From positions 1-64,000 of the IMG/VR virus record IMGVR_UViG_3300047560_001287: DNA of 64,000 bases; one strand, given 5' to 3'. Below, piece after piece: positions 1 through 32,261 of this stretch. The translations under genes and the position numbers were made by a program. Below the pieces are notes generated by a model. That model did no database searches. It was not told the DNA's origin and was given only the letters and a program-made list of their open reading frames with translations. Each line of letters starts with the position of its first letter. Within the stretch, counting starts at the first letter, position 1. The DNA is from a virus (taxonomy: Duplodnaviria > Heunggongvirae > Uroviricota > Caudoviricetes).

Positions 1-214
1 AGCGTTGGCTAGAGAAGTTATATTCTCAAGGCACACTAGAGTTGGATTACAAAAGTTGTGAAATGTTGAGCGATGATTTATACAATCAAATCGCACAACG
101 ATATCCCGATCGTGACATTGAGATTACTGTCTCCGAAGATGGTGAGAACGGCGCTACGATTTATTACAATAGAACTAAACCTTATCAACAACTCGCTATT
201 TAAAGGAAAATAAA

Positions 215-421
215 ATGGCAAAACCGCAAATCAAACCCAACGCAAAAGTCAATCAAATCTTTGACGATTTAGACAAATATTTAGATTTTTGCCAAGAGTA
301 TGGTTATAAGTATGACGAAGCAGATTTATACAATCAGCGGAGTTATGTGTATCGTCAATTTACTAAGTTTGCTACTAGCAGACCAGTAAAAAATCAATGG
401 GTGGAACACGCACGTCCATGA
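215..421 (+). CDS. hypothetical small protein (68 aa)
   Basis: ORF with AAGGAAA RBS 7 nt upstream; ends with ATGA overlap into next gene. Confidence 0.45.
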   Translation: MAKPQIKPNAKVNQIFDDLDKYLDFCQEYGYKYDEADLYNQRSYVYRQFTKFATSRPVKNQWVEHARP

Positions 422-1173
422 AAATAGTTTTAGTCACTGGTGGATTTGATCCACTACATAGCGGTCATATTGAATATTTCAAAGCCGCAAAACAGTTAGG
501 CGACAAGTTAGTTGTTGGCGTAAACAGTGACGCATGGTTGGCTCGTAAAAAGGGCCAACCTTTTATGCCTATTGCTGAACGTATGTCAATCATTGAGAAT
601 TTAAAAATGGTAGATCATTGTGTTATCTATAACGATGACGATGGTTCTAGCATCGAAGCTATTCGTAATGTAAAAATGATGTATCCAAATGATGAAATCA
701 TTTTTGCTAACGGTGGCGATAGAAATAAAAACAACATTCCAGAAATGGTATTTGATGATGTTAATTTTGTTTTCGGCGTCGGTGGTGAAAACAAAATGAA
801 TTCCAGTTCTTGGATATTGCAAGAATGGAAGCAACCTAAAATAATGCGACCATGGGGATATTATCGTATACTACACGAAGTATCAGGATGCAAAGTTAAA
901 GAACTAACAATTGAACCTGGTCAACGTCTTAGTATGCAAAAACATTTTAAGCGTAATGAATATTGGCTAGTTACACATGGTATGTGTCATGTCAATAGCA
1001 TGATGCCAAATGGTTATGTTTTGCCAGTAACGTTATTAAATGAACATCATAGTAAACATATTCCTAAAGGTGATTGGCATCAGTTAATTAACCCATATGA
1101 AATTCCTTGTCGTATTGTAGAAATACAATACGGTGAAGAATGTGTAGAAGAAGATATTGAGAGAAAAGAATGA
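418..1173 (+). CDS. nucleotidyltransferase (HldE domain II / RfaE-II-like, HxGH motif) fused to type-II phosphomannose-isomerase cupin domain
   Basis: N-term TGGFDPLHSGHIEYF...LGDKLVVGVNSDAWLARKKG matches ADP-heptose synthase domain II. C-term RPWGYY...GQRLSMQKHFKRNEYWLVTHG...EIQYGEECVEEDIER matches ManC-type PMI cupin. Start chosen at ATG 418 (ATGA overlap). Confidence 0.7.
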   Translation: MKIVLVTGGFDPLHSGHIEYFKAAKQLGDKLVVGVNSDAWLARKKGQPFMPIAERMSIIENLKMVDHCVIYNDDDGSSIEAIRNVKMMYPNDEIIFANGGDRNKNNIPEMVFDDVNFVFGVGGENKMNSSSWILQEWKQPKIMRPWGYYRILHEVSGCKVKELTIEPGQRLSMQKHFKRNEYWLVTHGMCHVNSMMPNGYVLPVTLLNEHHSKHIPKGDWHQLINPYEIPCRIVEIQYGEECVEEDIERKE

Positions 1174-2357
1174 GAACACTATATTACATGGGTCTAGAAC
1201 CCTACAAAGCAAGATACACTCTACAACTCACAGAGTGGAATGAGCGTGTCTTTAAGCGTAGAGGTATTGACTATGTAGTAGTACCCGGTGAAACATTATC
1301 TACAGACCAACAAATCGTAACAGGTCAAGTATTAGATGCACATGGTCGTAGTTATTTTGGCATGAGTCAATTAATGACATTGGTCAAGTGGATGAAAGAA
1401 GGAATTGTTACAAGTGAAGATGTTATCTACTTTGAAGATATGTTTCAACCAGGCTTTGAGAGTTTGCCTTATATTCTTAATCAGGTCCCTCAGTCGCATC
1501 GTCCAAAGATTTTTGTTAGATGCTTGGCTCAGTCAATCGACCCTGATGACTTTGTGCATGTATGGGGGATGTCCAAGTGGATGGGGCTATATGAACAGAT
1601 GGTGTGTGAGGCTGTCAGTCAAAGTGGGGGTGCTATCCTTGCGTCTAACGAAGAAATGGTCATGAACATGAAGATTGCAGGTTGGGAAGTTCCAATCTAC
1701 AATATCAGTGGTCTAGCATTTGGTAAACAAGAAGTAATTGAACGAGTTGGTACAATCAAACCATTCAATGAACGCAAACATCGTGTCGTGTTCTCAGCAC
1801 GATGGGATCAAGAAAAACAACCAGACTTCTATATGGATTTAATTGATGCTTGGCACAAACGTCATCCTGGAAGTGGTGTAGAGTTTGCAATTTGTTCAGG
1901 TGCAAAATTAAAAAGTAACAACGATAGTTATATGCAACGCACCCGAAATATGCAGGCTGCAGGAACCTTAACTTTACATGAGGATTTAAACAAAAATGAT
2001 TACTATAATATTGTCAATGATAGTCGTGTTGTTTTTAACTGTGCTTTACAAGATTGGGTTAGTAACACAGTTTCCGAAGCGGACGCTCTTGGTTGCAATG
2101 TGTTGTATCCTGCTTATAGGAGTTTCCCAGAAACTTTTGCAAATGATTATACCAGACTTTACGTACCATGGTCTATTGATGATGCTTTGGACAAACTTGA
2201 AAAGTTATTGAAGAAGCCCAGTGATAACATGGGTAAAATCAGTGACTGGACTGACTTGACTATTGACCGTATCTGTGATATCATTGAGGGGAAGGGTGAA
2301 CAATACCTTCGTATGTCAACCGATTATCGTAAACATTCTAGAGAAAGCAAATACTAA
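1170..2357 (+). CDS. putative GT-B fold glycosyltransferase
   Basis: 395 aa. C-terminal region VVFNCALQDWVSNTVSEADALGCNVLYP resembles the E-x7-E/GT4 nucleotide-sugar binding segment. ATGA overlap with upstream gene. Confidence 0.5.
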   Translation: MRTLYYMGLEPYKARYTLQLTEWNERVFKRRGIDYVVVPGETLSTDQQIVTGQVLDAHGRSYFGMSQLMTLVKWMKEGIVTSEDVIYFEDMFQPGFESLPYILNQVPQSHRPKIFVRCLAQSIDPDDFVHVWGMSKWMGLYEQMVCEAVSQSGGAILASNEEMVMNMKIAGWEVPIYNISGLAFGKQEVIERVGTIKPFNERKHRVVFSARWDQEKQPDFYMDLIDAWHKRHPGSGVEFAICSGAKLKSNNDSYMQRTRNMQAAGTLTLHEDLNKNDYYNIVNDSRVVFNCALQDWVSNTVSEADALGCNVLYPAYRSFPETFANDYTRLYVPWSIDDALDKLEKLLKKPSDNMGKISDWTDLTIDRICDIIEGKGEQYLRMSTDYRKHSRESKY

Positions 2358-2358
2358 T

Positions 2359-3276
2359 ATGTCAACAGAAGTAGTTAAAAACCCTGAGCATGAAAAACTC
2401 ATTGAGATTTTAAAGTTCACTCCGTGTACTTACAAGATTCAATTGTGGGGATATGGTGGTGAATATGTGATGGGTACAGTAGACCGCAAAATATACGACT
2501 ATTTCAAAAGACGCCGTCTTGACATAAGTGACTATGCCTGGGATAGTGACTATGCTAATGACAATCAAATTCCTGAAGATATGCAACCATTCTATCCAGG
2601 TCAATGGCATGACTGTGATGATATGGGTCATCACTGGGGTGTTGACAGAGGCGCAGGCACGTTGCAAATCTTAGACGAAAACGACAATGTAGTTTATGAA
2701 GCCAGTACTGATAACATTGATGGTTACAGTGAAGATAGCCCTGAATGGCGTGGTGGTGACGAGATATGGATTGACATGAAAGATCCAGGCACTGTTGTAT
2801 TCTTAGGAGTAAGCAGTGAGAAAGGTACGTTCTATGAAGGTCACTTAGAACTAAAATCTCCTTTCGATATCACTAAACTTTCACTCGAATATTCAGAGAT
2901 TGATTGTAACGAAATCATCACCGGTGTGTACTATAACGATGAACAAATTGACAACTACGGTGGTGACACTAGTGGCAAGAGTTCAGACTTTGGTTTCTAC
3001 ATTGCAGGCTCTAACAAGCACGATGGTAAGGGATACGAGAAGTATTCAAACATGGATGACATTGTTTATCCATTGACTGACTGGTTCCCTAAAAAAATCA
3101 AACCAGTCCGTGAAGGTATATATAATGTAAAGACTGCTGGTAAGAATAGTTATACATATCAAGCAAAGTGGACTGGTGATAAGTGGATCAAGACATGGAA
3201 TGATGAAGAAGTGAAAATTAAAGAGTGGCAGGGAATTAGTATCGATCCAGATTTAGAGGAGACAACAAATGGCTGA
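2359..3276 (+). CDS. hypothetical protein (305 aa), acidic, Trp/Tyr-rich
   Basis: Long ORF. Start set to first ATG after upstream stop. Confidence 0.5.
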   Translation: MSTEVVKNPEHEKLIEILKFTPCTYKIQLWGYGGEYVMGTVDRKIYDYFKRRRLDISDYAWDSDYANDNQIPEDMQPFYPGQWHDCDDMGHHWGVDRGAGTLQILDENDNVVYEASTDNIDGYSEDSPEWRGGDEIWIDMKDPGTVVFLGVSSEKGTFYEGHLELKSPFDITKLSLEYSEIDCNEIITGVYYNDEQIDNYGGDTSGKSSDFGFYIAGSNKHDGKGYEKYSNMDDIVYPLTDWFPKKIKPVREGIYNVKTAGKNSYTYQAKWTGDKWIKTWNDEEVKIKEWQGISIDPDLEETTNG

Positions 3277-3775
3277 GTGGAGCGTAAAACCCCAGTGGAA
3301 GAAATCAATTATTGAGCGCCAAGAATGGACTAAAGATGGACAATCATTCATCTATGAAACAGGTTGGCGCGGTGGTGAGTTTACTGTATACACAGATGAT
3401 GACAATCCCCCAGACATTGAAGCAGGTGTAGATATCTATAACTGTGACTATGAAACTGAACTTGTAGAAACATTTGATGGATGCTGGGACGATTATGATT
3501 TCGACGGTTGTGATGAAGAAACACAAGCGTGGCTAGAAGAATTCCTAGAAGAAAATTCTGTATTTGATTTGGAAGAACACGGTTGGTATAGCAATGATAC
3601 TGAAATGATTATTGATTGCGACTTAATCATTGAACGCATCGACGGTGACGAAGAACAAATTATTCACACTGGTCAACCAGAAGAAGAAGTCTTACCTGAA
3701 CTTGCACCTATTGTAGAAGAAAGAGCAAAATGGCCCTTCACTAGACCACAAGAAGGCACTAAGGAGGAAGAATAA
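3269..3775 (+). CDS. hypothetical highly acidic protein (168 aa)
   Basis: ORF overlapping upstream by 8 nt. About 30 percent Asp+Glu. Confidence 0.5.
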   Translation: MAEWSVKPQWKKSIIERQEWTKDGQSFIYETGWRGGEFTVYTDDDNPPDIEAGVDIYNCDYETELVETFDGCWDDYDFDGCDEETQAWLEEFLEENSVFDLEEHGWYSNDTEMIIDCDLIIERIDGDEEQIIHTGQPEEEVLPELAPIVEERAKWPFTRPQEGTKEEE

Positions 3776-4002
3776 TGGCACGAAAGAAAAAAGAAGTATT
3801 GGCTAACGAACCATCAGGTGGTTGGCCCGTAATTAGTCAAGGTCAACACCTGACCGTAAAGACTTTTGAAGATGGTTCAACTGAACTTGTTTGGGACGAT
3901 GAAGCATTATTGGAAGCAGTAAGAGAAGCAATTGCCTCTGTAGAAACAGAAGAAGCGAAAGCAAAACCAAAACCAAAGCGTAAATCAAAGGAGAAAAAAT
4001 GA
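3775..4002 (+). CDS. hypothetical small protein with Lys-rich tail
   Basis: TAATG overlap start. C-term KAKPKPKRKSKEKK. Confidence 0.4.
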   Translation: MARKKKEVLANEPSGGWPVISQGQHLTVKTFEDGSTELVWDDEALLEAVREAIASVETEEAKAKPKPKRKSKEKK

Positions 4003-4190
4003 GCGCACATAACGATATCAACACACACTTGGAAGCATATTTAGCAGAGAGTGAAAAATTTGAAAAGGGCAACAATGCCGCAGGTACACGTGCCCGCAAA
4101 GCATTAGCAGAACTAGCGAAAGCAGTTAAGGCTCGCCGTAATGAAATTACTGCTGAAAAAACTGCACGTAAAGAAGCGAAGGCAAAATAA
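3999..4190 (+). CDS. histone H1-like / KA-rich small basic DNA-binding-type protein
   Basis: 63 aa. AAGTRARKALAELAKAVKARR...KTARKEAKAK low-complexity basic helix. Confidence 0.4.
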   Translation: MSAHNDINTHLEAYLAESEKFEKGNNAAGTRARKALAELAKAVKARRNEITAEKTARKEAKAK

Positions 4191-4191
4191 A

Positions 4192-4383
4192 ATGTCAAAA
4201 CTAAACAAACTCGCAAAAGTAAATGAATCTATCAGTGTCAATCGGTATGATAACGGTTTTATGGTAGAAATCGGAGGTCGTGATTCAGATTCAGATTGGA
4301 AGAATTGTAAAATTCTTTGCAACACGGAAGAAGAAATGATCGCCGTAATCAAAGAGTGGAATTCTAAAGAACTCGACAACTGA
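4192..4383 (+). CDS. hypothetical small protein (63 aa)
   Basis: Internal ATG immediately after upstream stop. Confidence 0.4.
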   Translation: MSKLNKLAKVNESISVNRYDNGFMVEIGGRDSDSDWKNCKILCNTEEEMIAVIKEWNSKELDN

Positions 4384-4450
4384 GTATAAATACATGTGCT
4401 ACACAACGGTAGCACATTTCAATTTTCATATCCGCGTAAGGAAGGATTCT

Positions 4451-5131
4451 ATGAGTTATAACAAAACAAAAACCGACCCTGAGTTGGGTCAACAAGTGCA
4501 TGAGCACTTAGTCAAAATGGGTGTAGAAACACCAATCAACAAACGCAACATCGACCGCAAGGATCAAATTGCAGGCATCGAAGGTCACTTCACTGAAATC
4601 ATGCGTATCTTAGGATTAGACTTAACTGATGATAGTTTAACTGAAACACCTAAGCGTGTTGCTAAAATGTATGTTAATGAAATTTTCTGGGGTCTAGATT
4701 ATGAAGCATTTCCAAAGTGTACTACAGTTGATAACAAAATGCACTACAACGAAATGGTCGTTGAACGAAACGTTTCAGTCCAAAGTAACTGCGAACATCA
4801 CTTTGTCGTTATTGATGGCTTGGCTACAGTTGCTTATGTTCCTAAGCAGAAAGTCCTTGGCTTATCGAAGATTAATCGAATTGTCGAGTATTTTAGTAAA
4901 CGACCTCAGATCCAAGAACGTCTTACCGAGCAAATCTTCCACACACTTCAGTTCATTCTTGAAACTGAAGATGTTGCAGTCCTCATTGACGCACAACACT
5001 ATTGTGTTAAATCAAGAGGTGTTGAAGATACGGGATCCAGCACAGTTACATGCCGATTGGGTGGCGGTTTCAAAACAGATCCATCTGCACGTGGTGAGTT
5101 CTTACAAATTGCTAACAAAGGATGCAAATGA
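4451..5131 (+). CDS. folE: GTP cyclohydrolase I
   Basis: AAGGAAGGA RBS. CEHHFV catalytic motif, VAKMY, C-terminal STVTCRLGGGFK. Full-length FolE-type alignment by eye. Confidence 0.9.
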   Translation: MSYNKTKTDPELGQQVHEHLVKMGVETPINKRNIDRKDQIAGIEGHFTEIMRILGLDLTDDSLTETPKRVAKMYVNEIFWGLDYEAFPKCTTVDNKMHYNEMVVERNVSVQSNCEHHFVVIDGLATVAYVPKQKVLGLSKINRIVEYFSKRPQIQERLTEQIFHTLQFILETEDVAVLIDAQHYCVKSRGVEDTGSSTVTCRLGGGFKTDPSARGEFLQIANKGCK

Positions 5132-5322
5132 TTGAATTTCTTTCAAACATGAGTTTATTACTTGGAATGATTATTGAACAAGCAGTTTACATATTTTTAT
5201 TTTGTGTGGCGGGCTTGTTCATGTTTTATACTATAAAGAACACACCAGATAGTGCTTGTACAGGTAACTGCAATCAAGGTCGTAACTGTAACTGCAAGGA
5301 GAAGAAAGATGGGATTTCGTAA
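5122..5322 (+). CDS. small membrane protein with Cys-rich tail
   Basis: One predicted TM helix then CTGNCNQGRNCNC. Confidence 0.3.
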   Translation: MQMIEFLSNMSLLLGMIIEQAVYIFLFCVAGLFMFYTIKNTPDSACTGNCNQGRNCNCKEKKDGIS

Positions 5323-5545
5323 ACCAATGGACTACAATCAAGTGCATCATCAAATCTATATGGCAGGTGTAGAAATGAGTAGCAAATACAATGACGGTTT
5401 CACTCAATGGGAAATCAAAAAAGATTTGTATAAACTCAAATGGATGTTGGATCAGATTATGAAAGATAGTCCTACATTCGCTGATGAAGAACAATTCTTA
5501 AAAGAGAATGAACAGCGTGTAATGTGGAAGACTTTAAAGTTATGA
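5309..5545 (+). CDS. hypothetical protein (78 aa)
   Basis: AGGAGA RBS before ATG 5309. Confidence 0.4.
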   Translation: MGFRKPMDYNQVHHQIYMAGVEMSSKYNDGFTQWEIKKDLYKLKWMLDQIMKDSPTFADEEQFLKENEQRVMWKTLKL

Positions 5546-5847
5546 CTAAAACAAGCGTTGAACTAATACAAGAGGCTGCTGAAAGAATCATAAATGATCC
5601 AGTAGAACTTAAAAAGTTCATGCGACATATTCTAGGTCCTAATCGTAGGAAAATCACAGGTCAAGAACATGACCACATGTTAACTGTATTTGCTTTAGTA
5701 GAACCAATTGAATCAAGTAACAATCAAAGATCATGGACAGATGTATATGAACATGCAGGTAAAACTTATCATGTTCATTACTTTGAAGATGAAACAGAAA
5801 TAGAAGAAATACTACCAGATGATATTCAACAAGATAAAACAACTTAA
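5542..5847 (+). CDS. hypothetical protein (101 aa)
   Basis: ATGA overlap start. Confidence 0.45.
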   Translation: MTKTSVELIQEAAERIINDPVELKKFMRHILGPNRRKITGQEHDHMLTVFALVEPIESSNNQRSWTDVYEHAGKTYHVHYFEDETEIEEILPDDIQQDKTT

Positions 5848-6280
5848 AGAAGCAGGCAAAAAGATTGGCATTACATTCTCAACTTTTGACTTACTTCACG
5901 CAGGGCACATTGCTATGTTGGCTGAGGCTAAAAATCATTGTGACTACCTTATTGCAGGACTCCAAACTGACCCCACTATCGACAGACCAGATACGAAGAA
6001 TAAACCTGTACAGTCAATTGTGGAGCGACAAATACAATTGGCATCGTGTCGTTTTGTTGATGAAGTTGTTGTATACTCAACCGAACAAGACCTCATCGAC
6101 CTTCTCCTCATCCTTCCAGTTGACGTTAGAATACTCGGTGTCGAATATCAAAGTCAGGACTTTACTGGTAGAAAAGAAGGGACCGAAAAAGGTATAGAAC
6201 ACGTGTTTAACTCTCGTGACCATAGTTTCTCAAGTTCTAGTTTGAGAAAAAGAGTAGCTGAATCTGAAAATGGTAAATAA
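5819..6280 (+). CDS. cytidylyltransferase, TagD-like (glycerol-3-phosphate cytidylyltransferase family)
   Basis: GITFSTFDLLHAGHIAMLAEAK...YLIAGLQTD...RFVDEVVV aligns motif-for-motif with TagD ITYGTFDLLHWGHIKLLERAK...RYVDEVI. Confidence 0.75.
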   Translation: MIFNKIKQLKEAGKKIGITFSTFDLLHAGHIAMLAEAKNHCDYLIAGLQTDPTIDRPDTKNKPVQSIVERQIQLASCRFVDEVVVYSTEQDLIDLLLILPVDVRILGVEYQSQDFTGRKEGTEKGIEHVFNSRDHSFSSSSLRKRVAESENGK

Positions 6281-6354
6281 CATAAACCGGTCTTATGGGC
6301 TCACCCCGGTATATAAATTCTGCGTCCTATGCTAAAATTAACATAGGAGAAAAT

Positions 6355-6858
6355 ATGCATAATCCAATTACATACAAATACACAAGCACAAAAGAATACC
6401 ACGATGCGTTTCCGTGTGCTTATCGTCAATGGCGTGCAGACAGCCATTGCAACACAATTCATGGTTACAGTTTCAGTATGAAATTCTATTTCGGTACAAA
6501 CGATTTAGATGCCCGTAACTGGGCTGCCGACTATGGTGGTCTAAAAGAATTGAAGAAGTTCTTGGAAGATCAATTCGACCACACACTTATCGTAGCACAA
6601 GATGATCCAGAAATGGAAACATTCAAACTATTACAAGAAAAGAAGATGGCTAAAATCATCGTCTTGCCTGCGTTAGGTTGTGAAGCACTAAGTGATATGC
6701 TATACAAGTATGTCAATGGTGTTTACATTCCTGAGATGTGGGGTGAGGGAGAAGCAAAAAGACTTTGGTGCTACCGTGTAGAAGTACGGGAGACTCAAAG
6801 CAATATGGCTTTCAGAGAAGGTCATAGAGAGTGGAATGAAGATTTATTTAAGGAGTAA
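6355..6858 (+). CDS. queD: QueD-like 6-carboxytetrahydropterin synthase (PTPS/T-fold family), atypical metal ligands
   Basis: AGGAGA RBS. SHCNTIHGYSF matches Cx3HGH motif but second His is Tyr. FDHTLIVAQDD matches the LDHHYLND region. Confidence 0.7.
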   Translation: MHNPITYKYTSTKEYHDAFPCAYRQWRADSHCNTIHGYSFSMKFYFGTNDLDARNWAADYGGLKELKKFLEDQFDHTLIVAQDDPEMETFKLLQEKKMAKIIVLPALGCEALSDMLYKYVNGVYIPEMWGEGEAKRLWCYRVEVRETQSNMAFREGHREWNEDLFKE

Positions 6859-6860
6859 AA

Positions 6861-7481
6861 ATGTTTTCATTATTTAAAGACGTAGATAAGAAAATGATGG
6901 CAATGCTTGCAGTATTGCACGTTATTGTTATTATAATTTCAAACGCATTGGTTTCAATCCCAGTTGAAATCTTAGGTGTTAAATTAACTTGGGCGGCATT
7001 TACCTTCCCATTAGTTATTTTGGCAACAGACTTGACAGTCCGTTTACTAGGTAAAGGTATTGCACGGGCAACTATTGCGGCAGCATATCCATTTGCTATC
7101 TTAGGTAGTATTGCAGTTGTATTGTTAGAGGGAGCACCTCAATCAGTAGCATTGCGTATTGGTTTTGCTAGTGCAACAGCATACTTAGTAGGTACACTAC
7201 TTGATGTATATGTATTCCAATATGTCCGTGAGAAGTTCACTAAGCAATGGTGGGCGGCTCCTGCATTATCAATGATTGCCGCAAACTTTATTGATAGTTA
7301 CACATTCTTCAGTGTTGCATTCTATCAAAGTGCAGACGAATACATGGCGGCTAACTGGAGTGAAATTGCATTGAGTCAAACTATCCTAAAGATTGCAGTA
7401 GGTATTATTGTGTTCTTACCAGCATATGGTGTTCTATTGAACTTCTTAAAGAAGCGTATACACGATACTGACCAAGGATAA
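6861..7481 (+). CDS. yhhQ: YhhQ/DUF165-family queuosine-precursor (preQ0/preQ1) transporter
   Basis: AGGAG RBS. About 6 TM helices. N-terminal LAVLHVIVIIISNALVSIPVEILG typical of the family. Confidence 0.75.
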   Translation: MFSLFKDVDKKMMAMLAVLHVIVIIISNALVSIPVEILGVKLTWAAFTFPLVILATDLTVRLLGKGIARATIAAAYPFAILGSIAVVLLEGAPQSVALRIGFASATAYLVGTLLDVYVFQYVREKFTKQWWAAPALSMIAANFIDSYTFFSVAFYQSADEYMAANWSEIALSQTILKIAVGIIVFLPAYGVLLNFLKKRIHDTDQG

Positions 7482-7639
7482 TGAAGAACATTTGGCGTTT
7501 ATGGGCGAAAGCCCTTGGCGAAAAATCAGGTGATACGGATCAGGAAGCTGACCGTATCGCTTTGATTAGAACCTGCATTGTGCTAACATATATAGTCACA
7601 AATATTTTTATTGTTGCAGGCGTTATAAGGCATTGGTAA
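7481..7639 (+). CDS. small hydrophobic protein (52 aa)
   Basis: Fills otherwise empty gap. TAATG start and TAAATG end couplings. Not in supplied ORF track (<60 aa). Confidence 0.3.
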   Translation: MKNIWRLWAKALGEKSGDTDQEADRIALIRTCIVLTYIVTNIFIVAGVIRHW

Positions 7640-8194
7640 ATGAATATAGTAATTACAGGGCATATGGGTGGTATTGGTTTAGAATTTGCCACTCAGTTAA
7701 GAAATGCAGGTCATGTGATACATGGTTATGATTTGCTAAATGGCTATAATGTAGTTGACAGTCACACGCAAGATTTAATACTTGAACAGTTAAAATCGTG
7801 CGATGTGTTTATTAATAATGTTTATGGTGAATCACAACTTGAATTATTAAAGAAGGCAACAGCATCTTGGTTGGGTTTTAAAAAGTTAATAGTAAACATG
7901 AATAGTAAAAAGGTGTTAAAGGATCCTTCATTGATTGTTCCGGGCACACAAGAATCAAAATATTATACGGAAAAAATGAATCAAATGGTTTTCGCTAGAC
8001 AACATGCTAACACCAAAAAGACACCATTGATAATGTCAGTTTTTCCAGGATGGATTGATACAAAAGCCGCAGATACGTCTGGCGAAAATCCAACTGATAG
8101 AATGAAAGTAAGTACACTGGTAAAAACAATAGTACCATATATTGAAGATTTTTCCGAGTTCTATTTACAAGAAATGGTTATTGATTTATCATAA
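7640..8194 (+). CDS. short-chain dehydrogenase/reductase-like (compact, 184 aa)
   Basis: N-terminal ITGHMGGIG Rossmann motif. YYTEK fits YxxxK. Confidence 0.55.
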   Translation: MNIVITGHMGGIGLEFATQLRNAGHVIHGYDLLNGYNVVDSHTQDLILEQLKSCDVFINNVYGESQLELLKKATASWLGFKKLIVNMNSKKVLKDPSLIVPGTQESKYYTEKMNQMVFARQHANTKKTPLIMSVFPGWIDTKAADTSGENPTDRMKVSTLVKTIVPYIEDFSEFYLQEMVIDLS

Positions 8195-8213
8195 AGAATT
8201 ATGAAAGAAAGAA

Positions 8214-9056
8214 ATGGCAGAGTTAAAAATAGCTGAATTATTTTATAGCATTCAAGGTGAAGGACGTTATATGGGCGTTCCTTCTGTGTTTTTGAGAACA
8301 TTTGGGTGCAACTTCAAATGTGAAGGCTTCGGTATGCCTAGAGGTCAAACTAGTAATGAAAGGTTTACAATTGATGCAGATAGTATTACAGAGTATAAAA
8401 ATTTACCGTTGGTGTCTACGGGCTGTGATTCATATGCTTCATGGGACCCTCGTTTCAAGCATCTTAGTCCTATGCTCAATGTTAATACTATTGCCGATAG
8501 CATTATTGATTTACTTCCTCATGGTCGTTGGATGGATGAACACTTGGTTATTACTGGGGGTGAGCCACTTCTTGGATGGCAAAGAAGCTATCCTGAATTA
8601 CTTTCGAACGAAAAAATGAGGGCTCTCAAAGAGTTAACATTTGAGACTAACGGAACACAACATTTGAGTGAAGAATTTAAAGAATTCTTGCAACTTTGGA
8701 AAAGAAATAGAGAAAAGAATGCACTAACTTTTAGTGTAAGTCCTAAATTATCAGTAAGTGGAGAAAAGTATAATGAAGCAATTTTGCCTAATGTTATACG
8801 TCAATACCAAGATGTGGGTTTTGTATACCTTAAGTTCGTGGTGGCTTCAGAAGAAGATGTATTGGAAGCTGAAAAAGCTACACAAGAATACAAAAACTGC
8901 GGATTCAAAGGTCCAGTCTACTTGATGCCCGTTGGTGGTGTTGAAAGTGTTTACGAAATGAACGCAAAGAATGTAGCATTGGCAGCAATGAAACGTGGCT
9001 GGCGTTATAGTGATAGATTGCAAGTGCCATTATTTAAAAATGAATGGGGAACATGA
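8214..9056 (+). CDS. queE: 7-carboxy-7-deazaguanine synthase (radical SAM)
   Basis: ELFYSIQGEGRYMGVPSVFLRTFGCNFKCEGF matches QueE N-terminus and Cx14CxC-type cluster motif. Confidence 0.85.
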   Translation: MAELKIAELFYSIQGEGRYMGVPSVFLRTFGCNFKCEGFGMPRGQTSNERFTIDADSITEYKNLPLVSTGCDSYASWDPRFKHLSPMLNVNTIADSIIDLLPHGRWMDEHLVITGGEPLLGWQRSYPELLSNEKMRALKELTFETNGTQHLSEEFKEFLQLWKRNREKNALTFSVSPKLSVSGEKYNEAILPNVIRQYQDVGFVYLKFVVASEEDVLEAEKATQEYKNCGFKGPVYLMPVGGVESVYEMNAKNVALAAMKRGWRYSDRLQVPLFKNEWGT

Positions 9057-9262
9057 TGGCAGAGACACACAAACGAACAGTAGTTAGAATGATTACCTAT
9101 CGCTTATCAGCGTGGTTACTCACAATACCAATAATGTATTGGCTTACTGGTAACTTAGAAGAATCAATCGGGAGTTCAGTTCTGATTCACATACTTCTAA
9201 GTATAGATTACTATATACACGAACGCATATGGCTCAAAGTTAAATGGGGTAAAATTGAATGA
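9053..9262 (+). CDS. small membrane protein
   Basis: ATGA overlap with queE. Two hydrophobic segments. Confidence 0.35.
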   Translation: MMAETHKRTVVRMITYRLSAWLLTIPIMYWLTGNLEESIGSSVLIHILLSIDYYIHERIWLKVKWGKIE

Positions 9263-9498
9263 TCGATGTTCCAGAATATCAAGAAATCGACCTTAATGAG
9301 TACGAACGCAAAACTCGTGCTTGGGAACTGAAGTTCTGTTGGTTACCACAACGTTGTATTGAAACAATGCAGGTTATGTGGCTACAGTTTGCTTATCGTG
9401 GTTATAAGGCTCGTAGATATGATACGCAAATTATCGATTCGTATAAATGGATGTGCAAAGAAGAATTTATTATTTTGAGATTAAAAGGTGAGGTATGA
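9259..9498 (+). CDS. hypothetical protein (79 aa)
   Basis: ATGA overlap couplings on both sides. Confidence 0.35.
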   Translation: MIDVPEYQEIDLNEYERKTRAWELKFCWLPQRCIETMQVMWLQFAYRGYKARRYDTQIIDSYKWMCKEEFIILRLKGEV

Positions 9499-10850
9499 AA
9501 ACATATAAGAAAAGAATTGCGTTTTTAATTAGTGACCAACATTTTATCCCGCATGGTGGCATTGGTAGTTTCTGTAAGAGTTTTACAGAAATGTGTGGTC
9601 GGATTGGTTGGAAAGTAGATATTCTTTTAGACAAGGCTCCTACAGGTGGGTTTGATAAAGTGATTGAGGCTGCTGGTGCCAACATTATTTGGCCACTAGA
9701 ACCACTACGTTATAGTGACCACACTGCTACATTTGCGTTTAGTGATACAATCAACTTTGAAAAGATTATTAATTTCCGTAACAGCATCTTAGAAGCATTT
9801 GAAGAAAATCTCTATGACATGATTTTGTGCAACACGCAGGAAGCAATGAGTGCGGCTTATGCGATGACTTTGAATAAAGATATCCCTGTGATTTTCTATA
9901 CTCATTTACACAGTATGATTTTCCGTTCAGGTCAAGGTAGTGATGTGTTCTTAGATAGTTATCACAACTTCTACAACAAACATATGGAATTTCCTGATAT
10001 CTTTATCGGCACTCAATCACTGAAAAACAAAATAGAATTAGAAAGTCATGGTTCAAAATATGTAAGTATTTTACAGATGCCATTGAGTGAGCGTGGGTTA
10101 CTAGAGCCTAGTTATAAGAAACGCAGGGGTGTATTGTTTATTGGTCGATGGGAAGAAGGTAAGAACCCAGAAGCATATATCAAAGCGATGAAAGAATCAG
10201 GATTACCCTGCAAAGTTATGACTAACAGTAACGGACAAAAGAAGTTCGAGAAGGCTTTTGCAGAGAATGGTATCACTGACTACGAAATCAAAGCAGGGAT
10301 TACTGGACAAGAGAAAGTAGACTTTATTAAAAGTTGTGCAGTATTTTTTATGCCTAGCTTGCGTGAAAACTTTCCGTTCGCATTCTATGAATGTTTAGGA
10401 CACATGCCTAGCGTAGTGTTAGACACACAAGATTGGTCTGAGAATTTCCTACACATCTACTATTATAGAACTAACATGGATGAAGTTTCTGACACGTTAA
10501 AAAGATTACACGACACATCTAATCCAGAAAAATATTACAAAACAGGAGCGTTAGAATATGTCAAGTCTATTGACACTGATACTGTTCAGTCTTGGATTGA
10601 TTTTATTGACGGGTATGAAGGTAGAAAAGCAAAATCTAATCAAGCTAAAATCAATGAATACGAAACAGTGAAATACGCTGACTATATCAAAGAGTTAAAT
10701 CGTAAACATTTAGCGAGAGAAGATTTTGAAAGTGTGTTAACCAATAGACATAAATTCAACGTCATTTATACGGACAATCACACTTATCTATCAAAAGATG
10801 CTACCTTTGTACCAGACGAAGAAGAAACTAACTTATTTGAGGGACTATGA
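9495..10850 (+). CDS. GT-B glycosyltransferase (GT4-like)
   Basis: GGTGAGG RBS. RGVLFIGRWEEGKN...SLRENFPFAFYECLGHMPSVVLD resembles GT1/GT4 donor-binding segment. Confidence 0.65.
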   Translation: MKTYKKRIAFLISDQHFIPHGGIGSFCKSFTEMCGRIGWKVDILLDKAPTGGFDKVIEAAGANIIWPLEPLRYSDHTATFAFSDTINFEKIINFRNSILEAFEENLYDMILCNTQEAMSAAYAMTLNKDIPVIFYTHLHSMIFRSGQGSDVFLDSYHNFYNKHMEFPDIFIGTQSLKNKIELESHGSKYVSILQMPLSERGLLEPSYKKRRGVLFIGRWEEGKNPEAYIKAMKESGLPCKVMTNSNGQKKFEKAFAENGITDYEIKAGITGQEKVDFIKSCAVFFMPSLRENFPFAFYECLGHMPSVVLDTQDWSENFLHIYYYRTNMDEVSDTLKRLHDTSNPEKYYKTGALEYVKSIDTDTVQSWIDFIDGYEGRKAKSNQAKINEYETVKYADYIKELNRKHLAREDFESVLTNRHKFNVIYTDNHTYLSKDATFVPDEEETNLFEGL

Positions 10851-11671
10851 AAAAGATTTTAATTACAGGCAACTCGGGATATATCGGTAGTCATCTGACT
10901 AAGATGTTACAAGATGAATATGAAGTTCATGGGCTTGACATTAATCCACCGCAACTACTCCCCAAGACGCATCACACGATTGACATTCGTAAATTGTTTA
11001 ATATTGAAGAAGAATATGATGCCGTTATTCACTTAGCCGCATTAGTTAATGTGGGTGAGAGCGAACAAATACCCATTCAGTATTACATCACAAACTTGAA
11101 TGGTACAATGAATGTGATTAACAAAATCAAGACAAAGAACTTTATCTTTGCTAGTACAGGTGCCGCAGTTGGATGTGAGAGTGCATACGGTATTAGCAAA
11201 AGAGCCGCAGAAGATGTAGTTGGAGAATATTGTACAACCCATCGCCCGACACCATATACAATCTTTAGATTTTATAATGTTATTGGAAGCACCGTCGTGG
11301 CTCCCACTAACCCCGATGGATTAATGTACAATTTAATGAAGGCCCGAGAAACAGGAGAATTCACTATTTTCGGTAAGGACTATGATGCAAGTCCTGATGG
11401 AACTTGTATTCGTGACTATGTACATGTCAATGAGATTTGTGATGCATTAAAGCAAGCAATAGAGAAACCAAGTAATAGTGTTGAATCATTGGGACATGGT
11501 GTTGGATATACTGTTCGTGAAATTGTCAATAAATTTATGGAAGTAAACGATTGTGACTTTGATGTAAAGTATGGACCTAGAAGAAAAGGTGATCTTGCTG
11601 TTTCTGTATTAGAAGATGTTTCACCTTATATGCGTAACTTGTATACGATGGAAGAGTTGTTAAAAGTTTAA
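10847..11671 (+). CDS. NAD-dependent nucleotide-sugar epimerase/dehydratase
   Basis: ILITGNSGYIGSHL Rossmann motif. YGISK catalytic YxxxK. Extended-SDR length. Confidence 0.8.
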   Translation: MKKILITGNSGYIGSHLTKMLQDEYEVHGLDINPPQLLPKTHHTIDIRKLFNIEEEYDAVIHLAALVNVGESEQIPIQYYITNLNGTMNVINKIKTKNFIFASTGAAVGCESAYGISKRAAEDVVGEYCTTHRPTPYTIFRFYNVIGSTVVAPTNPDGLMYNLMKARETGEFTIFGKDYDASPDGTCIRDYVHVNEICDALKQAIEKPSNSVESLGHGVGYTVREIVNKFMEVNDCDFDVKYGPRRKGDLAVSVLEDVSPYMRNLYTMEELLKV

Positions 11672-12360
11672 CGATAATATTGATTCATAACATTGCTGTT
11701 GAATCCCACATCAACTACAACTGGTTTACCTTGATACATGCCCCAATTAGCGGCTCTGTTAAAATCACCCAATTCAACATCAAACGAATTCTTCAAGTCA
11801 GCGAAGTCGTTAACATATTGCAGGAAGATTTCATTGTCATCTTCACTGTTACCATAGAACTGATTTTTTTCAAGAATGTCGTCCAGTACACTACGTGAAC
11901 GTTGTCCATATTCATTTAATTGAGCTTGTGCGGCCATAACTAAATCAACAAGACCATAACATTTCATTATGTTACACAATTGTTTCTCACTAGCTTTAGT
12001 GGCCATTTCAGTGTGAATCCAACTAGGTTCACGATTTTCTTCATCATAGTCAATGATTGGTATTAGTATACCTAACTGTTTTGCATATCCATCACTAAGA
12101 ATATCTGCCTCAACACTGTTCTGTGCTAGACCTTTTTGATTCTTAGCAATCTTTAATACAGTAGGACGACCTTCATACTCAATAACAGTAGCAACACGAC
12201 TTGATCCGGTGCCTAATTTTTTAGCACGTTCTAACGCATAGGCTAAACGACTTTTGAACGTAGTAGCTTGCTGACGCATTGATGCAGGATCCCAATCCGC
12301 AGGTAGCGGCATCTCATCGATAATTCTAGCTTCTTCTTTGATAAACTCACTTGCTCTCAT
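11668..12360 (-). CDS. protein-kinase-like fold protein (atypical)
   Basis: LGTGSSRVATV glycine loop, VLKIAK (VAIK-like), VVVDVGF (DFG-like). Catalytic loop not canonical. Confidence 0.4.
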   Translation of the reverse strand: MRASEFIKEEARIIDEMPLPADWDPASMRQQATTFKSRLAYALERAKKLGTGSSRVATVIEYEGRPTVLKIAKNQKGLAQNSVEADILSDGYAKQLGILIPIIDYDEENREPSWIHTEMATKASEKQLCNIMKCYGLVDLVMAAQAQLNEYGQRSRSVLDDILEKNQFYGNSEDDNEIFLQYVNDFADLKNSFDVELGDFNRAANWGMYQGKPVVVDVGFNSNVMNQYYR

Positions 12361-12367
12361 CTAGTAT

Positions 12368-13663
12368 TTATCTAAAAAACGTTTCAAAGTCCGAATATTC
12401 AGGAAAAATTTCAACGAAGGACTCGTTCCTATTCGCATCGAGCCATTTATCTACTTCCCAGTAACTAGTAAAATCTTCTGCATCAAGGTTCAATCTACCT
12501 AAAATACCATTAAATGACTGTATCGTAAAGTCCGGGTGTGTATTACTATTAAATTCAGGAAAATACCAATTAGTATTGGCACTGGGTAATGTACGTAAGT
12601 ATTCAATATGGTCTTTGTATATTTTAGACAAATTATCTTTATGATGTTTTGGTAGATTTTTAATATCGTAATGTTCAGGGTTAGACACAATAGAATATAT
12701 GAAAAAATCATAAGGTCCTATTAATTTTTTATCTATCCATTCACGATGGAAATCAACTATGTTATATGCGTTGAATATGTTTATAGTAGAATTTATTGAA
12801 AATTTTACATTAGGTAGTTTTTCAATCATAAGTTCTCTGTTTTTTACAATATCATTCCATACTAGATTTTTTCGTATGTATTCTCCTCGCTTGTAATTAG
12901 CATCTAAACTAGCACCCACACGTAAATTTGTAAATTTACTCCAATAATTTATTACTCTTTTGATATTTGTAAAATTTGTAGAATAGTTTATTTCTACATC
13001 AGTTTTTCCGTTGTCAATTAAATATTCCAAAATTTGATAATGAACGTCATTTACAAGCGGTTCACCACCTGCAAAGTATATTTTTTCAACAGTTCGTAAG
13101 TCGTTTTTGATTGATTCAATATTTTCTAAACCAGTTAACCTTTTCATATGAATAGGTCTACGCATTATTTTTTTAAAAACAGGTATTTCTTTGAATAGTG
13201 ATGCTGTCTCATTACTCCAACTAGAACTAAACACACTGCTACAGTATCTACATCTGAGATTACATGTATTATCAATCATTAAATCCAAATATAATATTTT
13301 TGGATTGTCTAAAGAATAATCAAGGTTGATATTATCTTTGGTATTTTTTATAAAATCTTTTTTGAATTGTTCTACCATACCTTGACGGTAAGACCTAATT
13401 CCAGTGCGTTCTGTTTCGTAGCATCTTTTGCACTCTACAGATGGTTTGATGTTAATTATATTTTCCCTCATCTGTTTTATCTGATTAGAATTATAAGAAT
13501 TCGGGTCTGAATAATGTAGTAGAGGTTGGGTTCTATTTATTACACAACATGGGCTAACAGTGCCATCTGTGTTTATGTGTTTATTTGAGAACGGGGCTGG
13601 GCAGAAATATTCGCTATTGGTTATTAAATTACAGTCATCTTCCGAAATTGATAATTTATTCAT
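12368..13663 (-). CDS. radical SAM enzyme with N-terminal SPASM-like cysteine domain
   Basis: Central CNLRCRYC (Cx3Cx2C) and GGEPLV. N-terminal CPAPFSNKHINTDGTVSPCC...CKRC matches SPASM CxxPW..DG.V.PC consensus. Confidence 0.75.
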   Translation of the reverse strand: MNKLSISEDDCNLITNSEYFCPAPFSNKHINTDGTVSPCCVINRTQPLLHYSDPNSYNSNQIKQMRENIINIKPSVECKRCYETERTGIRSYRQGMVEQFKKDFIKNTKDNINLDYSLDNPKILYLDLMIDNTCNLRCRYCSSVFSSSWSNETASLFKEIPVFKKIMRRPIHMKRLTGLENIESIKNDLRTVEKIYFAGGEPLVNDVHYQILEYLIDNGKTDVEINYSTNFTNIKRVINYWSKFTNLRVGASLDANYKRGEYIRKNLVWNDIVKNRELMIEKLPNVKFSINSTINIFNAYNIVDFHREWIDKKLIGPYDFFIYSIVSNPEHYDIKNLPKHHKDNLSKIYKDHIEYLRTLPSANTNWYFPEFNSNTHPDFTIQSFNGILGRLNLDAEDFTSYWEVDKWLDANRNESFVEIFPEYSDFETFFR

Positions 13664-13693
13664 AAAATTATTTATTGCGGATAAATTACTATT

Positions 13694-14248
13694 TTATAAA
13701 CTCTTACCCCATCGTGTGTTGACAACGTTCCAGTTAATAATCTTCCACTGTTCTTTCAGATACTTTTTCTTGTCTGAGCCATAATCAAGTATCCAAGCAT
13801 GTTCCCACCAATCAACTAAAAGTAGTATGTCGTTGCGAACTTCATGGTTTTTAATGGTCTTGATTGAACCGTCGTATGCTAAGTAGACCCAACCACTACC
13901 TTCAATTTTCATTGCTTCTTCTTCAAATTTGTCTTTGAAATCTTCCCATGAACCAAAATGTCTTTTAATAAATCCTTCGATAGGACCGTTTGGTTTGTTG
14001 TTGTTTCTTAACTCGCGGAATTGAGGGAACAATGTATTATGTAAGAATGCTCCTGCATAATTAAATTCTCTGTCGCCTTCTTTTTTGTTATATCGTTCAG
14101 CATAACCATGCGCTAACTTGCCATAGTGCAAATCAAGTGTGTCTTTAGACATAACCGGACTTACTTCTTTTGGCTCAAAGTTCAGAGCAATGATTTCTAT
14201 ATCTTGAGGTTTACTTTTATCCTCAAGTAACTGAATAATATCACGCAT
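13694..14248 (-). CDS. sod: Fe/Mn superoxide dismutase family protein (compact)
   Basis: LHYGKLAHGY, FLHNTLF, GSGWVYLAY, DWWEHAW. All four metal-ligand positions (H, H, D, H) present. Confidence 0.75.
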   Translation of the reverse strand: MRDIIQLLEDKSKPQDIEIIALNFEPKEVSPVMSKDTLDLHYGKLAHGYAERYNKKEGDREFNYAGAFLHNTLFPQFRELRNNNKPNGPIEGFIKRHFGSWEDFKDKFEEEAMKIEGSGWVYLAYDGSIKTIKNHEVRNDILLLVDWWEHAWILDYGSDKKKYLKEQWKIINWNVVNTRWGKSL

Positions 14249-15819: not shown

Positions 15820-15838
15820 ATCGTTAATCCGTAAATAG

Positions 15839-15867
15839 TTGACTTTATTGCGTAATTGTGATACACT
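15839..15867 (+). promoter_or_regulatory. sigma70-like promoter (TTGACT-17-TACACT) for uvdE
   Basis: Seen in divergent intergenic region 15820-15896. Confidence 0.4.
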
Positions 15868-15896
15868 ATATCTATTATTTATCATTCCATTATCTT

Positions 15897-32153: not shown

Positions 32154-32261
32154 ATGACAAATGATCCTATTATAAATTATATGTGTGCGGCAATTATCGC
32201 AGTTGGCTTTGGTTATGTTTTGTGGTTCCTACACAAATATTGCGTAATAAGAGATAAATGA
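32154..32261 (+). CDS. small membrane protein (35 aa)
   Basis: TAAGGAG RBS. Single TM. ATGA overlap into next gene. Confidence 0.3.
   Translation: MTNDPIINYMCAAIIAVGFGYVLWFLHKYCVIRDK

Follow-up and report, generated by a model that had tools for sequence, protein, structure and literature searches.

Glycosyltransferase genes linked to a probable DpdL-type deazaguanine module in a predicted PA5oct-like jumbo phage

Why would a phage interleave the genes for a 7-deazaguanine base with genes that activate and transfer sugars? The question is raised by the first part of a 64,000-nucleotide stretch of a Caudoviricetes virus (IMG/VR record IMGVR_UViG_3300047560_001287, positions 1 to 64,000; this whole stretch is called the window), in which all genes from 215 to 11671 lie on the plus strand and folE, a queD-type gene, yhhQ and queE are intermingled with genes for nucleotidyltransferases, glycosyltransferases and an epimerase. 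An earlier note, made from the letters alone, had described this arrangement and had left two explanations standing, either a glycosylated or CDP-alcohol-decorated deazapurine in DNA or a virion or host glycan pathway co-regulated with DNA modification. Searches with hidden Markov models (HMMs; Pfam, NCBIfam, PHROG) confirmed nearly every gene call, including the four deazaguanine genes on one strand with sugar genes between them. After comparison with related loci we read the locus as most of a DpdL-type, QueC-independent deazaguanine island that belongs to a PA5oct-like jumbo phage and includes its own glycosylation branch, a reading for and against which, taken as a whole, we see the scales as level.

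Other genes of the window, among them those for ClpX, ClpP, ClpS, Hsp20, an ATP-dependent ligase, a dCMP deaminase and a flap nuclease, indicate a large phage, and the flap-nuclease/RNaseH gene is closest to that of PA5oct-like Pseudomonas jumbo phages (48.5% identity), followed by Rak2/GAP32-like jumbo phages; judged by these genes, the source genome is a PA5oct-like jumbo phage. A megablast search of the 4-12 kb region against phages gave a single 240-bp match in folE and nothing else. Relatives were collected in three scans. A QueE-anchored scan of IMG/VR gave 79 loci, with contigs as long as 524 kb, and the open reading frames (ORFs) of 80 QueE-anchored loci were clustered into families (c8, c44 and others) to give a presence/absence matrix; a second scan, anchored on the first glycosyltransferase (GT-A1), gave 80 loci of the window's own jumbo-phage lineage (the lineage loci); and a third, anchored on the transglycosylase DpdA2, gave 80 loci at 39-53% identity with a gene order like that of the T4-like cyanophage BUCT-ZZ01.

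Deazaguanine genes and the DpdL branch

The genes assigned to deazaguanine synthesis and uptake are the following.

3-203, plus strand: C-terminal 66 aa of DpdL, a QueD-paralog T-fold protein (76% identical to the C-terminus of its ortholog at L011:2010-2465)
4394-5131, plus strand: FolE, GTP cyclohydrolase I (NF006824 5e-98, 326.9 bits against a cut-off of 202; TIGR00063 238.6 bits against 181.6)
6295-6858, plus strand: QueD-type 6-carboxytetrahydropterin synthase, phage CxxxHGY variant (phrog_2389 7e-37; PF01242 2.4e-16, 60.3 bits against a cut-off of 22.4)
6861-7481, plus strand: YhhQ/Vut_1 transporter of 7-deazaguanine precursors (TIGR00697 113.8 bits against a cut-off of 50.95)
8214-9056, plus strand: QueE, radical-SAM 7-carboxy-7-deazaguanine synthase (phrog_2076 1.7e-52)

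The window appears to start inside dpdL, and the N-terminus with its LxxxHRHxF motif lies off the 5' end. In the full-length ortholog on L011 the motif reads LATPHRHIF, and it is also present in another relative (L004), in ACP17 gp125, in BUDD and in phiST; because full-length members of this family (cluster c8) carry L-x3-H-R-H-x-F, c8 is, on motif grounds, DpdL. A DpdL HMM built here likewise matched ACP17 gp125, BUDD, PA5oct 0318 and phiST gp040 (9e-40). DpdL was defined by the replacement of the CxxxHGH of QueD with LxxxHRHxF, was proposed to be a decarboxylase that converts 7-carboxy-7-deazaguanine (CDG) to 7-deazaguanine, and occurs together with FolE, QueD, QueE and DpdA and without QueC (Hutinet et al. 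2023, PMC10516641). A fused form of the protein is found in Vibrio phage Bakedbeans (L169, 8254-9405), where gp176 is a DpdL with an extra N-terminal domain (about 250 aa) that has no Pfam match.

Among the window's ORFs neither QueC, QueF and a tRNA-guanine transglycosylase (TGT) or DpdA nor a phosphoribosyltransferase (PRT) was detected, either in HMM searches of the locus or in a Pfam scan in which the leftover ORFs of at least 85 aa from 16.8 to 64 kb were joined into pseudo-proteins, so the earlier statement that QueC and Tgt/DpdA are missing is true for the window. The label "preQ0 branch" given with it has to be corrected to the DpdL branch, which leads to 2'-deoxy-7-deazaguanosine (dDG), as the locus is free of QueC and the 3' end of dpdL stands at the window start. 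The absence of QueC is a signature of this branch and therefore not a gap in the pathway, and that of DpdA probably follows from where the window begins, since in relatives the gene immediately before dpdL is of the DpdA family. DpdL and QueC/QueF were mutually exclusive across the 80 QueE-anchored loci, and the one DpdA2-anchored locus out of 80 that has QueC is without both DpdL and GT-A1. We have little doubt that the locus is a DpdL-type deazaguanine DNA-modification module.

The QueD-type protein scores below the cut-off of TIGR03367 and matches a CPH4 (6-carboxytetrahydropterin) synthase in PDB (7v0f, 5e-5); its residues C52, H56, G57, D95, H96, E130 and E166 are invariant in comparison with phiST gp036 and E. 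coli QueD, and its zinc motif reads CxxxHGY and not CxxxHGH, as in all aligned phage QueDs including phiST gp036. QueE falls under the cut-off of every NCBIfam QueE model (8e-17), carries FYSIQGEG (FxSIQGEG) and CNFKC followed by a distal Cys, and is 49% identical to the QueE of BUCT-ZZ01 and 33% to that of PA5oct. FolE is present in 64 of the 80 GT-A1-anchored and 75 of the 80 DpdA2-anchored loci. YhhQ, which also matches NF008406 (2.8e-58, 197 bits, under the cut-off of 252), is a rare accessory gene, found in about 4 of 160 related loci. Elsewhere in the window, a ferredoxin-like protein and an IscA/ErpA-like Fe-S assembly protein (51879-52205 and 62803-63129) may support the phage radical-SAM enzymes, QueE included.

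Sugar genes and their linkage to DpdL clusters

The sugar genes of the window comprise two glycosyltransferases and three genes that would supply or modify a sugar donor.

397-1173, plus strand: NT-cupin, a fusion of a cytidylyltransferase-family nucleotidyltransferase (NT; HSGH motif) with a cupin of the phosphomannose isomerase (PMI) type (CTP_transf_like 1e-14, 55.3 bits against 21; MannoseP_isomer 1.8e-25)
1170-2357, plus strand: GT-A1, a retaining, GT4-like glycosyltransferase of the GT-B fold (Glycos_transf_1-type, E 8e-5; AlphaFold model)
5819-6280, plus strand: CT-like, a stand-alone cytidylyltransferase-family nucleotidyltransferase (HAGH motif; PF01467 1.6e-10, 41.8 bits against 21)
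9495-10850, plus strand: GT-B2, a second GT4-like GT-B enzyme, a distant paralog of GT-A1 and a variable accessory (Glycos_transf_1-type, E 2.6e-6; AlphaFold model)
10847-11671, plus strand: short (274 aa) GalE-like, NAD-dependent nucleotide-sugar epimerase (TIGR01179 1.3e-46, below cut-off; PF01370 7.9e-32)

Both glycosyltransferases, as called from the sequence, were borne out: their Pfam matches are weak, and AlphaFold2 models of both show a GT-B fold and match GT4 enzymes with a Foldseek probability of 1.00. The top matches of the GT-A1 model (mean predicted local distance difference test, pLDDT, 74.7) were BshA, LmbT, OtsA, GlgM, PimA and MshA, with target-normalised TM-scores of up to ~0.65 (BshA, PimA), and those of the GT-B2 model (pLDDT 82.8) were HepE, WbnH, PimA and MshA, with scores of up to ~0.70 (HepE, PimA). 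The motif RW[DE]xxKxP is common to the two proteins. In GT-A1 the D/E-x7-E and R-x3-EK-x-P motifs are invariant across eight homologs that are 21-64% identical; the window protein reads D295-x7-E303, ACP17 and BUDD have E-x7-E, and E303 is invariant. This retention of the catalytic motif points to an enzyme that is probably catalytically competent.

The fusion, the TagD-like cytidylyltransferase and the epimerase were likewise upheld by Pfam, NCBIfam and PDB matches, although all equivalog models for the two nucleotidyltransferases score below cut-off. For CT-like these include rfaE_dom_II (1.6e-23) and TagD (1e-14), and its closest solved relatives are ethanolamine-phosphate cytidylyltransferase (4e-18) and the glycerol-3-phosphate cytidylyltransferase TagD (1.5e-11); the substrate that it activates is presumed to be a sugar-1-phosphate or a phospho-alcohol. 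NT-cupin is presumed to make a sugar phosphate and to activate it as a nucleoside diphosphate (NDP)-sugar. The fusion occurs in 28 and CT-like in 46 of the 80 lineage loci, and the epimerase, whose GxxGxxG and YxxxK motifs are intact, follows GT-B2 or GT-A1 in 39 of 80.

Among the 80 clustered loci, those of the window's lineage have a fixed gene order: polymerase, clamp-like protein, c65, c44, c8, a 68-aa protein (orf68), NT-cupin where present, GT-A1, FolE, CT-like, QueD, QueE, GT-B2, epimerase, UvdE, c4 and RNaseH, with further genes on both sides of FolE, after QueE and after the epimerase. DpdL is carried by 78 of the 80 GT-A1-anchored loci. In the T4-like operons, ordered QueE, PRT, FolE, DEDDh exonuclease, DpdA2, DpdL, GT-A1, QueD, the succession DpdL, GT-A1, QueD was found at 72 of the 80 DpdA2-anchored loci, and all 18 phage records with a match over at least 84% of the glycosyltransferase query also encode DpdL. 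GT-A1 thus accompanies dpdA/dpdL in metagenomic phages of two unrelated groups and in six lineages of isolates (PA5oct, ACP17, BUDD/X1, BCSR5, Phosso and BUCT-ZZ01). BUCT-ZZ01, with a GT-A1 63% identical to that of the window, has the order FolE, GT-B2, DpdA2, DpdL, GT-A1; ACP17 has a compact QueD-FolE-x-DpdA2-GT-DpdL-QueE cluster; BUDD/X1, BCSR5 and Phosso have DpdL followed by a gene named "glycosyltransferase"; and PA5oct EST35_0317 belongs to the GT-A1 family (hhalign 99.8%).

The other sugar genes recur around DpdL in part. T4-like operons carry a stand-alone PMI-type cupin (33% identical) between DpdL and GT-A1 and, between GT-A1 and QueD, a separate gene homologous to the fusion's NT half (56% identical), with CT-like homologs (62% identical) a few kb away. 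GT-B2 is found between FolE or DpdA2 and DpdL, and inside the DpdA2-DpdL operon in BUCT-ZZ01, L040, L179, L180 and L216.

Could the sugar genes serve an independent glycan pathway (virion-protein glycosylation, envelope remodelling or another small molecule) that shares no substrate with the deazaguanine genes and is merely co-transcribed with them in an early/middle accessory region? In the source databases GT-B2 homologs do go by the name "glycosyltransferase involved in cell wall biosynthesis", structurally the closest matches are GT4 enzymes of polysaccharides, thiols or lipids, NT-cupin, CT-like, GT-B2 and the epimerase come and go among close relatives, and the polymerase-RNaseH region also collects unrelated cargo (superoxide dismutase, UvdE, a radical-SAM protein). 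However, GT-A1 adjoins dpdL/dpdA in the jumbo and T4-like phages, in Busanvirus ACP17 and in BUDD/X1, BCSR5 and Phosso despite the low identities and differing gene orders; its place in T4-like operons is between dpdL and queD; DpdL is present in every one of the 18 records with a long match; and in ACP17 the neighbours are replication genes, with no other glycan genes nearby. The variability of the accessory genes may resemble the way in which T-even phages diversify their sugar patterns, and it would fit an unrelated glycan cassette as well, for which reason we keep this alternative, unlikely as it appears. The comparative data support the view that the link between sugar and deazaguanine genes goes beyond mere neighbourhood, and it is reasonable to suppose, with some confidence, that the two sets work in the same pathway. 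Of the two explanations first proposed, the conserved linkage of GT-A1 with dpdL/dpdA speaks for the one that ties sugar to deazaguanine, and the presence of the sugar on the base in DNA stays conjectural.

Our full-text literature search found no mention of GT4 and sugar-nucleotide enzymes with DpdL/DpdA2-type clusters or of the c44 family, and no paper describing sugar enzymes in known deazaguanine clusters, as had been supposed at the outset. The DpdL pathway, the DpdA subfamilies and the modified G of PA5oct are already published (PMC10516641, PMC12191111). What appears to be new here is the association of GT4 and sugar-nucleotide genes with DpdL clusters, together with the DpdA-like c44 family.

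Further genes were noticed beside DpdL clusters. Within the deazaguanine cluster of Burkholderia phage BCSR5 (L171), two genes before the GT-A1 homolog, QRE00065 (10927-11634) is an LmbE/PIG-L-like deacetylase with APHVDDE (AHxDDE) and HDDH (HxDH) motifs; by analogy, this pairing hints at transfer of N-acetylglucosamine (GlcNAc) followed by de-N-acetylation. A PAPS-reductase/CysD-like ATP-pyrophosphatase adjoins the deazaguanine genes in BCSR5 (L171 10267-10914) and BUDD (L085 7380-7874) and could be a QueC-like carboxylate-activating enzyme. In the T4-like DpdA2 loci (L179-L258; e.g. L199 7266-9001) a PRT is present in 53 of 80 and a DEDDh 3'-5' exonuclease in 65 of 80; the PRT tracks DpdL, was never seen with QueC, and may salvage the guanine that is released or add ribose to the deazapurine. 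Other T4-like loci (L021, L026, L029-L035, L039, L058, L076) carry QueC, QueF, a formyltransferase (DpdN-like) and a DpdA3-like gene, a set that matches the published fdPreQ1 pathway. A scan of bacterial genomes for GT-A1 found it only on contigs binned into metagenome-assembled genomes (MAGs), 58-73% identical, probably phage-derived and with no clearly cellular context. The bins of these contigs (L172-L178) are assigned to Haliscomenobacter, Chitinophagales, Bacteroidetes, Phycisphaerae, Rickettsiales and Syntrophomonadaceae, which gives no consistent host signal, and the contigs are probably mis-binned phage sequences.

The transglycosylase and the proposed pathway

The candidate transglycosylase is the c44 family, which stands directly upstream of dpdL in 73 of the 80 GT-A1-anchored loci and in PA5oct; the lineage loci without DpdL or without c44 are contigs that break off. 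These proteins have 490-535 aa and contain DSGGFQ. Profile-profile comparison aligned c44 with the DpdA2-like family over 219 columns (hhalign probability 94.4%, E 8.4e-8), with D103, S104, G105, G106 and Q108, the DSGGxQ motif of the catalytic Asp, invariant; the DpdA2-like members themselves (BUCT-ZZ01, ACP17, BUDD) are 33-36% identical to the experimentally active DpdA2 of VH7D and nt-1. Pfam and PDB sequence searches do not identify either family as TGT, and it is by profile-profile comparison only that they are linked; for at least 6,900 metagenomic c44 homologs (e.g. L004:3431-4897) no Pfam domain is recorded, and all of them bear the name "hypothetical". We infer that c44 is probably a divergent DpdA-family transglycosylase. 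The 545-aa GP88-domain protein of the window (14248-15885, minus strand) had been considered as a hidden DpdA and was rejected: it gave no PDB or TGT signal, its phage matches are unrelated, and it varies among relatives.

We postulate the following pathway. FolE, QueD and QueE, assigned here by homology, would convert GTP to 7,8-dihydroneopterin triphosphate (H2NTP), CPH4 and CDG by established enzymology, and DpdL would convert CDG to 7-deazaguanine, as proposed in the literature. An enzyme of the c44 type, encoded upstream in relatives, would then exchange guanine in the phage DNA for the deazapurine, and YhhQ would salvage deazapurine bases. From gene neighbourhood, GT-A1 is predicted to place a sugar on the deazaguanine, before or after its insertion into DNA, GT-B2 to extend or diversify that sugar, and NT-cupin, CT-like and the GalE-like epimerase to supply the donor. 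The outcome would be a DNA resistant to host restriction, with a sugar decoration that varies by lineage. That mature DNA carries a sugar on its deazaguanine we consider plausible, if slightly short of an even call.

Several observations weigh against this pathway. The most serious is chemical: 7-deazaguanine offers no obvious sugar acceptor at C7, and an N2-, O6- or C-glycoside would be needed. Cellulophaga phage phiST makes plain dDG and has no GT-A1 homolog, so the glycosyltransferase is not needed for dDG itself. GT-A1 fails the Pfam Glycos_transf_1 model (22.7 bits against a gathering threshold of 26.4) and GT-B2 just passes it (27.5 bits); the T4 alpha- and beta-glucosyltransferases are not in the top 50 PDB matches of either model; and the best structural matches of both enzymes use small-molecule acceptors. 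The inconstancy of NT-cupin, CT-like, GT-B2 and the epimerase among close relatives tells in the same direction. As for the transglycosylase, c44 has no match to Pfam TGT (PF01702), its best E against a solved TGT is 0.52, and both the predicted DpdA-family gene and the DpdL motif lie outside the window and are placed from relatives.

A second alternative is that GT-A1 is needed to make or insert plain 7-deazaguanine with a DpdA2- or c44-type enzyme, through a transient glycosyl intermediate or as an obligate partner, and that mature DNA contains only dDG. GT-A1 indeed co-occurs with DpdL plus DpdA2/c44 and is absent where the transglycosylase is DpdA3-like (phiST, Ahp1, RHph_I1_18 and the T4-like loci L018-L025). 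Moreover, no dDG was obtained when dpdL and dpdA of ACP17 were expressed together in E. coli without the glycosyltransferase gp124 (PMC10516641), a failure compatible with missing partner genes. A cupin isomerase, nucleotidyltransferases, an epimerase, a second glycosyltransferase and, in BCSR5, an LmbE-type deacetylase nevertheless recur in these modules, which argues for a stable sugar product, and the catalytic D/E-x7-E motif is conserved. We regard a role confined to plain dDG as rather improbable.

A soluble product is a further alternative: a glycosylated or ribosylated deazapurine like tubercidin, toyocamycin or huimycin, or an analogue of the nucleotide pool, without post-replicative decoration of DNA. 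In tubercidin biosynthesis CDG is the substrate of a PRT, and both huimycin and dapiramicin are 7-deazaguanines that bear a sugar; a PRT is frequent in DpdL modules (PA5oct, BUCT-ZZ01 and the L060-L080 group, besides the T4-like loci counted above), some relatives have HIT and kinase-like genes, and small-molecule acceptors are the rule among the GT4 matches. However, practically all of these modules include a DNA transglycosylase of the DpdA family, they sit among replication genes, the DNA of PA5oct is itself restriction-resistant, and the window has no PRT, all of which makes a soluble product hard to credit.

The presence of FolE, an enzyme of the 6-pyruvoyltetrahydropterin synthase (PTPS) family, a short-chain dehydrogenase/reductase (SDR) and GT4 enzymes would also suit the synthesis of a tetrahydropterin and its glycosylation, as in the cyanobacterial biopterin glucoside. 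The pterin glucosyltransferase PsBGluT was the structural match of GT-B2 at rank 49, and one phage bearing the glycosyltransferase infects Synechococcus PCC 7942. That match is no better than those to generic GT4 enzymes, however; nearly all modules have QueE, DpdL and DpdA as partners, whereas one of 80 loci has the SDR; and the PTPS-family protein is of the same phage QueD class as that of phiST, where dDG was shown. Pterin glycosides are accordingly the least credible explanation and a very remote one.

We return to a sugar on DNA deazaguanine, and extend it, tentatively and below the confidence given to the locus itself, to phages that combine DpdL with a DpdA2- or c44-type transglycosylase: the window's abundant environmental jumbo-phage lineage, PA5oct, ACP17, BCSR5, Phosso and BUCT-ZZ01 may all carry glycosylated 7-deazaguanine in DNA (one or two sugar units, in some lineages perhaps a hexosamine, in N-, O- or C-glycosidic linkage), with GT-A1 as the committed enzyme and GT-B2, NT, cupin and epimerase diversifying the sugar.

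Surroundings of the module, known systems and meaning

Further genes lie within and next to the module.

215-421, plus strand: conserved 68-aa protein (orf68) between dpdL and GT-A1, at this position in 76 of the 80 GT-A1-anchored loci
2380-3276, plus strand: accessory protein c72 (listed as an ORF from TTG 2263, with its real start probably beyond 2357)
3269-3775, plus strand: accessory protein c27 between GT-A1 and folE, in 21 of the 80 lineage loci, with no family match
7640-8194, plus strand: Rossmann/SDR-like protein of 184 aa, a rare accessory (HMM E ~2e-3; motifs TGxxxGIG, NNxxG and YxxxK read directly)
9044-9262, plus strand: DUF2061 membrane protein (PF09834 1.5e-5), recurring between queE and GT-B2
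9259-9498, plus strand: 79-aa protein, recurring between queE and GT-B2
12368-13663, minus strand: N-terminal-twitch radical-SAM protein (NF033640 7.5e-93)

Stop and start codons overlap at 1170/1173, 3269/3276 and 10847/10850; a promoter and terminator scan of the window did no better than on shuffled sequence, and a tRNA search of it found none. The c72 protein, which adjoins GT-A1 in L060, L070 and a few other loci, had no match in Pfam, PHROG or PDB searches, and the same searches were uninformative for c27 and the short SDR. The SDR proposed between yhhQ and queE keeps its three motifs with marginal HMM support; it was rejected as an ortholog of PA5oct EST35_0320, with which it has only the N-terminal Rossmann motif in common. 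The convergent radical-SAM enzyme, although correctly called, is not part of the system. It belongs to a variable minus-strand cassette (11668-15885) of a phrog_4301 protein, the radical-SAM protein, a Fe/Mn superoxide dismutase and the 545-aa GP88-domain (PF17338) protein, which is present in few relatives and never inside the module, and the radical-SAM/phrog_4301 pair was therefore dismissed as a second deazapurine tailoring step.

Farther downstream lie a full Clp set (ClpX 39235-40437, Hsp20 40763-41200, ClpS 41265-41576, ClpP 44759-45352) with a SprT-like protease nearby (42653-43144), and a fatty-acid-desaturase-like membrane protein (33643-34368; PF00487, 1e-8). Proteins of about 250 aa with no Pfam match, at 32258-33031, 34365-35114, 56204-56971, 57500-58261, 58274-59047 and 59005-59802, appear, from their translations, to be paralogous, with N-terminal G-rich motifs and, in many, a C-terminal KMPW.

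Among known systems, phiST (Hutinet et al. 2023, PMC10516641) is similar to the window lineage in having FolE, a QueD of the CxxxHGY class, QueE and DpdL, no QueC, and a DpdA-family gene beside replication genes. It differs in its DpdA3, in the lack of a second glycosyltransferase and of sugar-nucleotide genes as well as of GT-A1, and in its plain dDG, whereas the window lineage has the divergent, un-annotated DpdA-like c44 and always carries GT-A1. In the Pseudomonas jumbo phage PA5oct (Wroclawvirus; EST35_0316-0322) polymerase, clamp-like protein, c44 (32.5%), the GT-A1 family and DpdL (54%) are followed by QueE and RNaseH (48.5%), with a PRT between DpdL and QueE; in contrast to the window, the ~21-kb region examined has no homolog of FolE, the QueD class, NT-cupin, CT-like, GT-B2 or the GalE-like epimerase, and a PTPS-like gene has been reported elsewhere in that genome (PMC12191111). 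PA5oct DNA resists five restriction enzymes with G in their sites, which indicates a modified G (PMC12191111); our literature search found no published chemical identity for it.

The Vibrio phages VH7D and nt-1 (KVP40-like) share the active DpdA2, to which the DpdA2 of BUCT-ZZ01, ACP17 and BUDD is related by sequence and c44 at the profile level, but QueC, QueF and ArcS or DpdM are present in them and the bases that they make are of the preQ0, preQ1 or G+ type, and neither DpdL nor GT-A1 was detected in KVP40-like records. With the alpha- and beta-glucosyltransferases of T-even phages, which act on 5-hydroxymethylcytosine (5-hmC), the proposed logic has in common a GT-B enzyme that moves a sugar from an NDP-sugar onto a non-canonical base, patterns that vary by lineage and a second glycosyltransferase that can extend the sugar; the T-even target, however, is a pyrimidine with a hydroxymethyl handle, there is neither sequence similarity nor a top-50 structural match, and no deazapurine chemistry is involved. 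In BshA/BshB and MshA/MshB a GT4 GlcNAc transferase works with an LmbE-type deacetylase; BshA and MshA are top structural matches of GT-A1, and BCSR5 pairs its glycosyltransferase with an LmbE/PIG-L-like protein. These systems nevertheless serve low-molecular-weight thiols, with malate or inositol as acceptors, and the window has no deacetylase.

Dedicated glycosyltransferases do attach sugars to 7-deazaguanine derivatives, as in the mannosyl- and galactosyl-queuosine of tRNA, huimycin and dapiramicin. The sugar goes onto the cyclopentenediol of tRNA queuosine or onto the 2-amino group of a free base, and none of these compounds is known in DNA or with DpdL/DpdA. To our knowledge, none of the eight 7-deazaguanine derivatives of DNA bears a sugar, and no glycosylated purine is known in DNA.

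The 7-deazaguanine modifications of DNA are a major phage counter-defence, and in one class of their clusters, that with DpdL and a DpdA2- or c44-type enzyme, a GT4 glycosyltransferase is near-constant, with thousands of metagenomic homologs and several cultured phages. This association may explain why heterologous reconstitution with dpdL and dpdA failed, and the work also identifies c44 as a large, un-annotated DpdA-like family. The prediction is testable by liquid chromatography-mass spectrometry (LC-MS) on phages already in culture. If it is true, the base would be, as far as we know, the first sugar-decorated purine described in any DNA, and it would represent a new chemical class of DNA hypermodification, with a bearing on restriction evasion, modification-dependent defence, sequencing artefacts and the enzymatic labelling of DNA.

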